A stretch of DNA of 39,722 bases from a virus (Duplodnaviria; Heunggongvirae; Uroviricota; Caudoviricetes). Below are positions 22,862 through 26,786 of this stretch, in pieces. Below the pieces are notes generated by a model. The model was not told where the DNA came from and did no database searches. It saw only the letters and a program-made list of their open reading frames with translations. Each line of letters begins with the position of its first letter. The stretch's first letter is position 1. Location of the stretch: positions 1 to 39,722 of the IMG/VR virus record IMGVR_UViG_2541047869_000003. One strand, given 5' to 3'. The translations under genes were made by a program, and so were the position numbers.

Positions 22862-22937
22862 TGGTGCTGGTTAACGGACTTGAACCGCCACCCATTCGCT
22901 TACAAGGCGACTGCTCTACCATTGGAGCTAAACCAGC
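22862..22937 (-). tRNA. tRNA, anticodon UGU (Thr) by manual folding
   Basis: 76 nt: 7/7 acceptor stem (GCTGGTT / AACCAGC), 4-bp D stem (GCTC / GAGC), anticodon loop CTTGTAA, T arm GGCGG-TTCAAGT-CCGTT, encoded 3' CCA. Confidence 0.6.
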
Positions 22938-22942
22938 ATGTT

Positions 22943-23017
22943 TGGCGGGACAGCGTGGACTCGAACCACGATAAGAAGGTTAACAGCCTTCCGTAATGAC
23001 CTTTATACGACTGACCC
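22943..23017 (-). tRNA. tRNA, anticodon GUU (Asn) by manual folding; may be degenerate
   Basis: 75 nt: acceptor stem 6/7, 5-bp anticodon stem GAAGG / CCTTC with loop CTGTTAA, T arm CGTGG-TTCGAGT-CCACG, encoded CCA; one mismatch in the D stem. Confidence 0.5.
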
Positions 23018-23076: not shown

Positions 23077-23601
23077 TTATGGCCAAATGGATAATTGCAT
23101 GTCAAGACTTTTAACAGCAACATGTTTAACTTTCTCAACACGTTTACGAATTTTGAAAGCATTTTGCATTGGTTGGTACAAAACAAATAATGATGCTTTC
23201 AGGATGTCGTCAATTTCATTTCTACAGGTTGCCAGTGAAGGTTTTCTCCATCCCTCGCCACCACGTCCACACATCTTGCGTGGCTTTGCAGTCGCGTGAT
23301 AGTAGGATGCAATTGCTCGCTTAGATGAACCATGAGCGTAGTAGCTGAGGAGGATGCCAAAGGCTTTCTTGTCAATGCACATGACGGAATCGACGACCTG
23401 AGAAATCAACATTCCATCATCATCATTGCACATTGGCCTTGTCATAATTCTTCCCGGCTCTACGCTCTCCATGAACTTCGCTATTACGCTGCTCATGCGC
23501 TTTTCCAAACGACCTGAATAAACCCATGCGCCCCACAGTTCAAGCCAGCCATTCAGCCACTCATGCTGTTCTTTGGTGAGGTTTAGTTCTCTTATGCCCA
23601 C
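23077..23601 (-). CDS. Q: Late-gene antiterminator Q (phage 21/82-type)
   Basis: 174 aa immediately upstream of tR', the tRNAs and the lysis cassette; Cys/His-containing C-terminal region; overlaps the upstream phosphatase gene. Confidence 0.8.
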
Positions 23602-24263
23602 GCGCCTTCTCCCTGTACCTGAATCAATGTGAGATTTCCGCAGAACACTGCCCCAGTATCGATATACATCTGGTTGGCAAATTTGAGTGGTTTCACTGCT
23701 GGCGTATGACCAAAGATAAACGTGTCCGCGCCTTTAATTTCTTTAACGATCCCGTCTTGTGAGTTGCTGATTCGTTCGCGGTTCCAGATTACCTGCTGAT
23801 GATCAACTGGCTTTCCAAATTCGTATTCGTCACAAGGATAATCGGCGTGGCAGATGACATATTTTTTACCTTTGCTCACCAGTTCGATGATTAACGGAAG
23901 TTCTTCTGCTTTATGGGCAAGAGCTTTAGCCAGAATTTCTTTGTCGTAATCGAGATTAAAGAACCAGCCACCGCCATCAAGCAGCCAATGATTAACGTTT
24001 CCACGCTCTGATAAGCCATCAATCATCATTTGCTCATGGTTTCCACGTACAGCTCTGAACCAGGGGAATGTGATTAATTCCAGGCATTCAACGTTCTCTG
24101 CACCACGATCAACCAAATCGCCCACCGAGATAAGCAGGTCTTTTTTGTTGTCGAATCCAATCGTATCCAGTTTGTTCATCAGGTTCGTGTAGCATCCGTG
24201 CAGATCGCCAACTACCCAAATATTTCGGTATTTGCTGCCATCAATTCTTTCGTAGATATTCAT
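23592..24263 (-). CDS. ninI: Ser/Thr protein phosphatase (lambda NinI/ORF221-like, calcineurin-like metallophosphatase)
   Basis: 223 aa with metallophosphatase motifs GDLHG, GDLVDRG, GNHE and a later GH. Confidence 0.9.
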
Positions 24264-24871
24264 GCAGCCTCACTTCTGCTGTTTCGCAGTTTTTTAAGTT
24301 TCTGTTGATACTCCGCCTTGATGGTCCTGCACTCTTCGACAGTCCAGCGATGGCGGTTATGGTTTGATTCGATTTCGTCTACTGCTTCCTGCCCGATGCG
24401 GTTAATCAGTTCGACGCGATACGGAACGAGATTTCCGCTTTTGTGCTGGTTGCACACCACGCATTGCTTGTGAATATTGCGTTCATCAAATCGGAGTTGA
24501 GGCGCCGCAGCAGTTGTCCGGTAATGCCCGGCATCCCACTGAGCAGACGTGAGCGTTCCGCACGAGATACATGGTAAGTCGCGGTCTCTTTCTCTGATGA
24601 AGGCGTTTACGGCTTGTTGGGCTTGTTTAATCCAGTAACTGCGGGGCTTTAAGGCGAGTTTTCGAATCTTAAGTTTATCTTTCTGTTTCTGCTCCTCTCG
24701 TCGTCGTTTCTTCTCTGCTGCCTTTTCCGCTTTTTCGCGTTCTTTGCTTCGTCGTTCGAGTGCTATCTTGGTTCCACACTCTGGAGAGCACCACCACTGA
24801 TTGGCGAATGCAGGGTGAAACCATTCCCGACATTCATCGTTTTTACATCGTCTTCGCGCTGGTTTAGCCAT
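24260..24871 (-). CDS. ninG: NinG (Rap) recombination protein
   Basis: 203 aa; N-terminal Cys cluster ([12 protein letters not shown]...WWCSPEC) and basic Lys/Arg/Glu-rich segment as in lambda NinG. Confidence 0.85.
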
Positions 24872-25046
24872 CGTCTTCTTCCTCGTGCATCGAGCTATTC
24901 GGATCGCTCATCAGTTCTGCGCAGCAGTGCTCACACACGTGAACTTCCAGCACATGCAGCTTCTGACCGCAGTTAGCGCACGTTAAAGCTCGCTCGACGC
25001 TTTCTTTCTGGTATTGAATGGATTGGGATGGGCTAAGCATTAACAA
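24864..25046 (-). CDS. ninF: NinF
   Basis: 60 aa, ...[58 protein letters not shown], near-identical to lambda NinF from memory. Confidence 0.85.
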
Positions 25047-25983
25047 CCTCCATACAAACTTTCACGAATGCCGTTGCTACTTCTGCATTGATTGCGTTTC
25101 CATATCCAATAATTCGCTGATCTTGATTGCGCTTTGCCATTCTTCCCAGTGTGGACTTGCCTCGTCCCAAGCTTTTGGCAATGCCATTAACCATCGGGAA
25201 TGAGCCGGGTCTAACTGGACGATATTTTTCATCTCTACAGTAAAGCCAGTCTGCATCTCTCCAGAAGCCGTTAACCGGTAATGGGTACATAGCTTCACCG
25301 TCCCGGGAAGTTTCAAGCAGATTCTTGGGGTTCCGCTCTTGTCTTTTCCGCTGTAGCAATGCGTTGAACCTGTTGCATCGTTCGCTAAAGGAGTTTGCCA
25401 TCCCGCTAGTCTCACGCATCCAGATAGGTTCTGAATTCCCCTGCGCGTCTCTGGCTGAAAGTTGATATTTGTCGTTGGAGTAGGCCACCCAATACAATCG
25501 CTGCCTGATGTGCGGAGAACCGAAGCCCGCAGCGCAAATATCGGTACCTGCAGAGGTGTAGTTCGCACCTTCCAAGTCAGTTTGTACAAGGTCGAGCCAA
25601 GCGAGGCCGTCTGCGCTTGCAACCTGTTCGCCAATAACGATGCCAGGATTGCATTTTTCAATAAGCCAGAAGAATGCCGGCCATAAGTGCCGCTCGTCAT
25701 CAACCCCTTTTCCTTTGCCTGCCGAGCTGAAAGGTTGGCATGGGCAACTTCCTGTCCAGATACTCTTGTTGTCTGGCCATCCTGCTTTTCTAAGTGCATA
25801 GCTCCAAACTCCGATTCCTGCAAAAAAGTGGTGCTGGGTAAATCCTCGCAAATCACCTGGTGTGACATCTTCAATACTCCTTTCATCTACATAACCGGGG
25901 GCAATTTCTCCAGCGTCAATTAAGTTACGCAGCCATTGCGCTGCATACGGATCTATTTCGTTGTAATACGCAGTCATCGTCAT
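25033..25983 (-). CDS. Orphan DNA (cytosine-5) methyltransferase
   Basis: Start taken at MTMTAYYNE (ATGA overlap with the ninE stop). Motif I variant FFAGIGVWS, motif [18 protein letters not shown] (catalytic PCQ), EQV variant of ENV. No adjacent restriction endonuclease candidate. Confidence 0.8.
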
Positions 25984-26156
25984 TTCCTCGCACGATGTCT
26001 TAGCCACCGGATATCCCACAGGTGAGCCGTGTAGTTGAAGGTTTTTACGTCAGATTCTTTTGGGATTGGCTTGCGTTTATTTCTGGAGCGTTTCGTTGGA
26101 AGGTATTTGCAGTTTTCGCAGATGATGTCGGTGATACTTCGTCGCTGTCGCCTCAT
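25980..26156 (-). CDS. ninE: NinD/NinE-family small protein
   Basis: 58 aa from the internal Met, [58 protein letters not shown], matching a lambda nin-region small protein from memory; starts adjacent to the ninB stop. Confidence 0.6.
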
Positions 26157-26593
26157 GCCGCCCTGTCTCCCCATCTCGCTTTCCACTCCAGAGCCAGTCG
26201 CGCTTCGTCTGACCACTTAACGCCACGCTCTGTACCGAATGCCTGTATAAGCTCTAATAACTCCGCAAATTCGCTTACACGCATCCTGCTGGTTGACTGG
26301 CCTATTACCACAAAGCCATTCCCGGTAAGGTTAGGAACAACGTCCTGCTGCTTTAATGCTGCTGTAAAAACGCACTTCCAGCTTTCTGCATCCAGCCAGC
26401 GACCATGCCATTCAACCTGACGAGAGACGTCACCAAGGCAAGCCCAAAGCTTTCGATTCTGGTCTAAGCTGCGGTTGCGTTCCTGAATGGTTACTACGAT
26501 TGGTTTGGTTGGGTCTGGAAGGATTTGCTGTACTGCGTGAATAGCGTTTTGCTGATGTGCTGGAGATCGAATTTCAAAGGTTAGTTTTTTCAT
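26153..26593 (-). CDS. ninB: NinB (Orf-family recombination mediator)
   Basis: 146 aa, the same length as lambda NinB; first nin gene after the replication genes. Confidence 0.85.
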
Positions 26594-26786
26594 GACTTCC
26601 CTCTCTAACAGATTTCAGGTTATTCCACTCCGTTACCGCACTGCGATAATTCGCGGCCGCCACAGTAGAGTGGTTAGCGCAGTAGATTTGGCACCCGTTC
26701 TCCATGTCGAATATTGTCGGTGATTTTCCGCATTTACATTTTTTGGCACGCGGTGCGTCTGAACACATTCCGTTAACGGTGTCCAT
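26574..26786 (-). CDS. Hypothetical Cys-rich small protein
   Basis: 70 aa with CKCGKSP...GCQIYCANH cysteine spacing; between the helicase and ninB (the lambda ren position). Confidence 0.4.
   Translation of the reverse strand: MDTVNGMCSDAPRAKKCKCGKSPTIFDMENGCQIYCANHSTVAAANYRSAVTEWNNLKSVREGSHEKTNL

Follow-up and report, generated by a model that had tools for sequence, protein, structure and literature searches.

C5 DNA methyltransferases are commonly monomeric, and reviews name M.EcoHK31I and M.AquI as the two exceptions. In M.EcoHK31I (Escherichia coli HK31, YGGCCR; Lee, Kam & Shaw 1995), the beta polypeptide is encoded wholly in another frame of the alpha gene; motifs I-VIII and X are located in alpha and motif IX in beta, both polypeptides are required, and the beta frame has internal Met codons usable as starts (PMC2836561, PMC3404938). 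Every naturally permuted C5 methylase reported to date has motifs IX-X ahead of motif I (PMC5944983). Here, we have analyzed a C5 methyltransferase locus in a viral DNA stretch of 39,722 nucleotides (IMG/VR record IMGVR_UViG_2541047869_000003, Caudoviricetes; the whole stretch is hereafter referred to as the window). The window represents a P22-like prophage of E. coli: it encodes P22 coat, portal and tailspike head-binding domains and is 92-95% identical in nucleotide sequence to phages Kapi1, Sf101 and CUS-3. A first-pass annotation, made from the sequence alone, had described the locus as a single orphan methyltransferase gene between ninE and ninF; it overlooked a second open reading frame (ORF) embedded in that gene as well as the displacement of motif I.

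On the basis of the current results, this 951-bp stretch probably encodes an orphan phage-borne two-subunit C5 DNA methyltransferase in two overlapping frames. By analogy, the locus probably belongs to the rare M.EcoHK31I type, or is a variant of it, rather than being an ordinary one-protein orphan methylase. We searched the literature on overlapping genes, target recognition domains (TRDs) and ninE/ninF methyltransferases, and no paper reporting an M.EcoHK31I-like architecture in phages was found. The two genes, for which we use the M.EcoHK31I names alpha and beta, and the start signal of beta are located as follows:

25033..25983, minus strand: alpha gene (frame 0), 316 amino acids from ATG at 25983 to TAG at 25033-25035; predicted catalytic (large-domain) subunit of a C5 methyltransferase
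25077..25868, minus strand: beta gene (+1 frame, entirely within alpha), 263 amino acids from ATG at 25868; the frame is open up to 25886 (269 codons)
25877..25882, minus strand: Shine-Dalgarno sequence AAGGAG of beta, 8 nucleotides upstream of ATG 25868, read in alpha as codons GAA-AGG-AGT (E34-R35-S36)

Evidence of selection on the embedded frame

The embedded frame was first seen in an alignment, in which the annotated coding sequences (CDSs) of Burkholderia phage vB_E192b and Xanthomonas phage FoX4 were off the methylase frame. Of 88 homologous loci (36-100% amino acid identity), 86 had a +1 frame that was open across 80-95% of the gene, whereas open stretches in the +2 frame of the same homologues reached at most 34-90 codons. 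We also compared the length of the beta ORF with 1000 synonymous-codon shuffles that left the alpha protein unchanged and retained the codon usage of the gene. Among the 15 loci examined in this way, the excess length of beta reached P<0.001 at 10 loci and P<=0.003 at 12, and the three loci with the highest GC content gave P=0.035-0.09. The start region points in the same direction: the string GAA AGG AGY ATT GAA GAT G, which contains the Shine-Dalgarno sequence and AGG, a rare Arg codon in E. coli, was kept at the nucleotide level in most enterobacterial homologues.

Third-position entropy, measured at conserved residues in 31 sequences below 80% identity, provided a view of constraint in each frame. 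In frame 0 it was 1.5-2.0 bits in codons 5-33 and 287-310, which lie outside beta or past its conserved part, and it dropped to 0-0.7 bits in codons 82-99, 104-167 and 238-267, which lie under beta motifs. Several alpha codons appeared to be frozen, including L132 CTT (27/27), E138 GAA (31/31), V257 GTT (30/30), P259 CCC (28/28) and T261 ACA (24/24). In the reciprocal test, third positions of beta were frozen at the catalytic motifs of alpha and free (1.2-1.9 bits) across the GWPTP modules. Thus, the per-position map could be divided into codons constrained in alpha only (5-33 and 287-312), codons constrained in both frames (81-167 and 238-267) and codons with the periodicity of beta (168-237). 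In the last segment the most variable position was the third position of beta, and the beta residues G-W-P-T-P were kept with free synonymous change. Because only beta-frame periodicity is visible there, the "variable region" of alpha appears to be a shadow of beta, and its recurring G[ML]AN would be GW[PQ]T read one base earlier.

An alternative explanation is that a monomeric orphan C5 methyltransferase accounts for the whole 316-amino-acid product and that the +1 ORF is a by-product of base composition or of frame-0 conservation. RefSeq and its annotation pipeline PGAP annotate the alpha frame only, and all catalytic motifs as well as motif X are found in frame 0, both of which agree with a monomer. 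However, a by-product of this kind is at odds with an ORF longer than its synonymous shuffles, with a +1 but not a +2 frame kept open among divergent homologues, with frame-0 synonymous sites that are frozen only under beta motifs and with the periodicity of codons 168-237. We consider the monomer very improbable. Both alpha and beta are under purifying selection, and beta has its own start signals; judged from these sequence patterns, beta is very likely a real, selected gene.

Family membership and motif order of alpha

The alpha ORF itself is real, lies on the minus strand and belongs to the C5 methyltransferase family, as the first-pass annotation had proposed. It matched Pfam PF00145 with E=6.3e-14 and 52.6 bits (gathering threshold 22) and PHROG 363 over its full length with E=9e-92, and scored 42.2 bits against NCBIfam TIGR00675 'dcm', which is below the cutoff of 100.65. 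In a phmmer search of Protein Data Bank (PDB) sequences, residues 70-171 aligned with motifs IV-VIII of M.HhaI. The start chosen by PGAP is two codons further in and gives a protein of 314 amino acids; in RefSeq, WP_077635079.1 ('DNA cytosine methyltransferase') occupies the identical prophage slot. The alpha gene as such is therefore already annotated in RefSeq, and the embedded frame is not. The following motifs were assigned on an alignment of 15 family members, except that motif X, which lies outside the hidden Markov model (HMM) alignments, was recognized by inspection and invariance:

25810-25824, minus strand: motif I, F54-A-G-I-G58, S-adenosylmethionine (SAM)-binding loop, placed after motifs II (E9) and III (D39)
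25735-25743, minus strand: motif IV, P81-C82-Q83, with the catalytic cysteine; invariant in 15 homologues and aligned to PCQ of M.HhaI
25621-25629, minus strand: motif VI, E119-Q-V, a variant of ENV; E119, Q120 and V121 invariant and aligned to ENV of M.HhaI
25498-25506, minus strand: motif VIII, R160-Q-R162 (RxR); aligned to M.HhaI and in the family alignment
25090-25107, minus strand: motif X, G-Y-G-N-A-I, residues 293-298; Y294, G295, N296, A297 and I298 invariant

The catalytic residues are intact, and the PCQ motif named in the first-pass annotation was confirmed at residues 81-83. Throughout the alpha family the Asn of motif VI is replaced by Gln. The order of invariant blocks in the 15 homologues was AYYNEID (II), SIEDV (III), I, PCQPFS (IV), GEQV (VI) and HIR.R (VIII), followed by a variable indel-rich stretch, a conserved block and GYGNAI (X). 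The FxGxG-like SAM motif of the earlier description is thus present as FAGIG at residues 54-58, but it is not N-terminal and follows motifs II and III. When the N-terminal 80 residues of alpha were compared with relatives of canonical order by hhalign, residues 51-69 were placed on canonical motif I (residues 4-22) with a probability of 94% and E=1.2e-7. In addition, the TIGR00675 alignment begins at model position 25, which corresponds to alpha residue 6. Since both results agree, motif I appears, from these alignments, to have been relocated to a position that follows motif III and precedes motif IV; this rearrangement does not amount to a circular permutation.

The C-terminal part of alpha showed a different picture. 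PF00145 covered residues 75-202 only (model positions 64-196 of 324), neither PF00145 nor TIGR00675 gave any coverage past motif VIII, and motif IX was not detectable in frame 0. No selection in frame 0 was visible in codons 168-237, between motifs VIII and X. The view of the locus as a canonical self-sufficient enzyme of 316 amino acids was therefore not supported, considering the end of HMM coverage after motif VIII, the lack of motif IX, the unconstrained codons and the conserved 263-amino-acid gene inside; that neither motif IX nor a TRD is detectable in alpha also argues against the monomer considered above.

The beta protein and a candidate motif IX

Blocks shared among beta sequences include LA.RL..., LRAS..RTS....GWPTP, (A)GW.TP.A.D modules and a RLTASGE... 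C-terminal block. The number of (A)GW.TP.A.D modules varied from 0 to 7 in 146 representatives. In the window, beta contains the following elements:

25476-25490, minus strand: module 1, G127-W-P-T-P131; conserved, with free synonymous sites
25389-25403, minus strand: module 2, G156-W-Q-T-P160; GWxTP module
25167..25214, minus strand: C-terminal block, residues 219-234, candidate motif IX; common to Gram-positive and Gram-negative phages

Beta matched PHROG 1008 and PHROG 31772. No Pfam family matched it, and its profile gave no match to PDB sequences at E<=10. In the AlphaFold2 (AF2) model of beta, a helix at residues 69-90, a hairpin at 96-116 and C-terminal helices (with one at 221-228) were predicted, each with moderate confidence only. 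Based on this model, beta by itself is probably largely unfolded.

Some additional features were observed in other members. The homologues P0383, P0331 and P0345 are 480-570 amino acids long and contain six or more tandem (A/S)GW.TP.A.D modules about 30-45 residues apart, and homologue P0275 has an extra C-terminal domain of about 150 amino acids after an LNP..WLMGLP block. In several phages, the N-terminus of beta carries QLTLF or QLTLW: MQGSALTQLTLFPED in Lc-Nu, EIEQLTLFPQD in Lily and MSFQLTLWDTP in an EBPR podovirus (about 1987-2030 of locus L089, 1951-2000 of L088 and about 2613-2650 of L006). This peptide resembles the bacterial sliding-clamp-binding pentapeptide QL[SD]LF; the window beta has a degenerate HQVICE there.

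The C-terminal block has a spacing equal to that of Dcm LTPRECARLMGF. Another alternative explanation is that a single chain is produced by programmed ribosomal frameshifting, from frame 0 (motifs I-VIII) into the +1 beta frame (TRD and motif IX) and back by -1 for motif X. Such splicing would recreate the canonical order VIII-TRD-IX-X, and the spacing from 'LP..W' of beta to 'GNA' of alpha fits short C5 methylases. However, the open, conserved stretch of beta starts well ahead of any such shift point and overlaps motifs IV-VIII, and beta has a conserved Shine-Dalgarno sequence and ATG of its own; chimeras spliced in this way did no better against Pfam or TIGR00675, and the only characterized precedent consists of two separate polypeptides (PMC2836561). 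We regard a frameshifted single chain as very unlikely.

It should be noted that several observations weigh against a two-subunit enzyme with motif IX in beta. When beta was aligned to the C-terminus of Dcm by hhalign, the register fell on Dcm motif IX (PRECARLMGFE), yet the E value was 0.39; against full-length Dcm, the motif IV flank was chosen instead, with E=0.6. Chimeras consisting of the alpha N-terminus, beta and alpha motif X gained neither score nor coverage against PF00145 or TIGR00675, and C-terminal peptides of beta searched against Pfam at E<=10 matched neither PF00145 nor any other model. The AF2 model of beta, based on a 121-sequence alignment, had a mean predicted local distance difference test score (pLDDT) of 47 and was mostly of low confidence; for alpha, AF2 without an alignment gave a mean pLDDT of 34 and was unusable. 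In addition, the conserved alpha block at residues 238-267 has no assigned role, and the variable region of the window alpha is unconstrained in its own frame, unlike that of M.EcoHK31I, in which the TRD is assigned to alpha. Finally, both the translation of beta and its binding to alpha are inferences.

Distribution of the embedded frame in phages

Annotation of the two frames differed among database records. In Burkholderia and Xanthomonas phage records the beta frame alone was annotated, as 'putative metabolic enzyme' or 'DNA methyltransferase', and in RefSeq E. coli records alpha alone. Both frames were annotated in phage K1G (L003 2583-3275), with the embedded ORF as a second 'DNA methyltransferase'. 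In Escherichia phage K1ind2 (L091 553-1350) the embedded ORF was labelled 'putative Mte8-like protein', a label that may be the only hint of sequence homology to M.EcoHK31I; 'Mte8' was found in the literature as a passing annotation term only. The +1 ORF inside gp62 of Paenibacillus phage Lily (254 amino acids) was recorded by its annotators as gp63, 'g62 internal gene' (L088 1951-2442). Nothing was found in the literature on this Paenibacillus 'internal gene', and a pangenome paper on out-of-frame genes did not mention methylases.

Beta-like +1 ORFs were also identified inside short C5 methylases of two other phages of Gram-positive bacteria, ORF40 of Lactobacillus phage Lc-Nu and gp29 of Microbacterium phage R1. 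The blocks ANLS, LTWK, PTP and ..MGFP.(G/K)W are common to the beta ORFs of these Gram-positive phages and the window beta. Over motifs IV-VIII, alpha was 45% identical to its Gram-positive phage counterparts, and beta matched with E=5e-6. Similarity of beta over these motifs may partly shadow the conservation of alpha, as the monomer would have it. Relative to a null model projected from alpha, the similarity between Gram-negative and Gram-positive beta sequences gave z=3.6 for Lily, 2.6 for Lc-Nu and only 1.5 for Microbacterium; it thus appears to exceed the projection in Lily and Lc-Nu and not clearly in Microbacterium. On the other hand, the C-terminal block of beta was kept between Gram-positive and Gram-negative phages where the alpha chains are unalignable, which a frame-0 by-product would not explain. 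The Gram-positive phage alphas have about 55 amino acids between motifs VIII and X, which, from the length, appears to be too few for a TRD and motif IX.

At database scale, 2784 beta-frame gene calls were present at 90% clustering, and the beta profile matched 14,591 protein clusters at 50% identity. Beta-like sequence was found in 243 records of the phage collection. The 60 annotated matches among those listed all fell under methylase genes, 'putative metabolic enzyme' or hypothetical/unnamed CDSs, and none under another known function.

These data bear on a further alternative, in which beta is a true overlapping gene with a methylation-independent function (anti-defence or regulatory, for example) and alpha works alone or with host factors. 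The lack of a Pfam or PDB sequence match, the predicted disorder, which is a feature of many overprinted proteins, the variable number of short GWxTP repeats and the clamp-binding-like peptide at some N-termini are consistent with an independent role. Nevertheless, annotated matches among those listed for the phage collection were always under methylase or unnamed CDSs, the association with methylases holds across bacterial phyla, the short alphas have no room for a recognition domain of their own, and the M.EcoHK31I precedent shows functional dependence (PMC2836561). We consider an independent function unlikely. The same observations favor the two-subunit reading: beta would be a methylase subunit because it is nested in methylase genes in all cases examined, because short alphas lack a recognition domain and because M.EcoHK31I provides a precedent.

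The current distribution suggests that the architecture is widespread in phages and has been overlooked by annotation. A broader reading would be that a large, ancient group of phage C5 methyltransferases, comprising at least 14,591 clusters at 50% identity in actinobacterial, firmicute and proteobacterial phages, consists entirely of alpha/beta heterodimers from overlapping frames. DNA recognition would then reside in beta (GWxTP modules and motif IX), the alpha 'variable region/TRD' would be the beta shadow, and the proteobacterial branch would have added a non-circular transposition of motif I that is undescribed for natural C5 methylases. Taken jointly, these statements are tentative, and we hold them to be slightly more doubtful than probable.

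Genomic context and proposed function

The alpha gene lies between ninE and ninF and overlaps both, in agreement with the first-pass annotation. Its neighbours and other features of this part of the window are listed below:

25980..26156, minus strand: ninE, NinE PF05322 (E=1.7e-43); its stop overlaps the alpha ATG as ATGA (25980-25983)
24864..25040, minus strand: ninF, NinF PF05810 (E=1.7e-12); its ATG (25040) lies 8 nucleotides inside the alpha 3' end
26574-26786, minus strand: Cys-rich ORF of 70 amino acids (CKCGK...CANH, zinc-ribbon-like), between the DnaB-like helicase gene and ninB and overlapping the ninB start
22862-22937 and 22943-23017, minus strand: tRNA-Thr(TGT) and tRNA-Asn(GTT), between the Q antiterminator and holin genes

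Pfam identified NinB, NinE, NinF and NinG (the last after NinF) among the neighbours of alpha, with a phosphatase also nearby; no cognate restriction endonuclease or other nuclease gene was found among them, and the gene is phage-borne, so the orphan status assigned earlier held. The flanking nin DNA was matched in 2241 of 5426 complete E. coli genomes and the alpha gene in only 11 (0.2%), ST131 and STEC strains among them. All 11 copies had at least 99% identity and were located in the ninE-ninF slot. Given the difference between these two counts, the alpha gene is a true insertion in this slot.

Another 57 complete E. coli genomes contained more distant relatives of alpha (about 70-73% nucleotide identity) in other prophage contexts, beside VRR-NUC/PDDEXK nuclease, DUF4406 or DUF5405 genes. 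In strain STEC1588, genes for an HNH endonuclease and an N6-adenine methyltransferase were also present in the same nin region. The gene directly after ninG in the window encodes a Ser/Thr phosphatase (24260-24263 / 23592-24263), whereas in an otherwise near-identical ST131 prophage ninH lies between the two (L001 4894-5100); the ST131 prophage has the tRNA-Thr(TGT)/tRNA-Asn(GTT) pair at the corresponding place. No Pfam match was obtained for the Cys-rich ORF at 26574-26786.

In lambdoid phages, the nin region is expressed in the delayed-early phase of lytic growth and is kept repressed in the lysogen. Because of this repression, a change in the epigenetic state of the lysogen, which had been offered as one usual role of such methyltransferases, appears unlikely, and the position in a repressed lytic operon led us to reject it as the main role. 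Instead, given its location in the delayed-early nin region, which is transcribed from pR, the gene would be expressed in lytic growth. In the mechanism that we propose, alpha would be the SAM-binding catalytic large domain, with motifs II, III, I, IV, VI and VIII, an unconstrained linker and motif X. Beta would be translated separately from its own Shine-Dalgarno sequence and ATG on the same delayed-early transcript and, consisting of an N-terminal domain followed by two GWxTP modules and a helix resembling motif IX at the C-terminus, would supply the small-domain/DNA-recognition part of one-chain enzymes. By the M.EcoHK31I precedent, alpha and beta may assemble into an active enzyme, which would methylate replicating phage DNA and thereby protect the progeny from host restriction. 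The target site should then be sought in beta and not in the alpha stretch between motifs VIII and X. We infer beta translation, association of alpha and beta, dependence of activity on beta, a 5-methylcytosine product and the anti-restriction role from the sequence data and the known relatives.

Implications

Current annotation by PGAP and Pfam sees alpha only, and beta, with more than 14,000 protein clusters, is left unannotated or 'hypothetical'; specificity predictions from the alpha 'TRD' would therefore read the wrong frame. If alpha needs beta, cloning alpha alone, as is usual for phage orphan methylases, would give false negatives. In the prophage studied here, which is P22-like, the locus can be viewed as an accessory gene with a putative anti-restriction role. 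The dual coding on the same strand extends over about 790 nucleotides and is kept across bacterial phyla, with a clear map of constraint per frame. The locus therefore offers an unusually clean model in which two proteins share one sequence and repeat modules expand in one frame with a linker in the other. If the broader, tentative reading is true, few known families of long overlapping genes on the same strand would be larger than this one, which is systematically missed by annotation and absent from Pfam, and M.EcoHK31I would be no mere curiosity.

Comparison with known systems

Judged by its published description, M.EcoHK31I has a beta gene nested in alpha in a different frame with its own internal start, as in the window, and the window alpha likewise has motifs I-VIII and X without motif IX. 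However, M.EcoHK31I is part of a restriction-modification system, whereas the window locus is an orphan in the nin region of a prophage; its beta has about 176 amino acids compared with 263 in the window, where GWxTP repeat modules are present, and motif I is apparently displaced in the window alpha. M.AquI is also composed of two polypeptides split in the variable region, similar to the enzyme proposed here. Its subunits, however, come from consecutive genes, and both motif IX and motif X are found in its beta (PMC3404938). In the window, motif X is part of alpha, and the beta gene is nested inside that of alpha.

With regard to one-chain enzymes, motifs IV, VI and VIII of M.HhaI and E. coli Dcm align with alpha, and SAM-binding residues are present in alpha; in contrast with alpha, both are single chains with an in-frame TRD and motif IX. 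The type H enzymes M.BssHII, M.Alw26I and M2.Eco31I share a non-canonical motif order with the window alpha, but they represent a true circular permutation with motifs IX-X before I-VIII (PMC5944983), whereas in the window only motif I has apparently moved and motif X is C-terminal. The methylases of phages Lily, Lc-Nu and Microbacterium R1 resemble the window locus in having an embedded +1 ORF with ANLS/LTWK/PTP blocks, and differ from it in their canonical motif order (motif I first), their alphas of 246-261 amino acids and their shorter betas with one PTP module.

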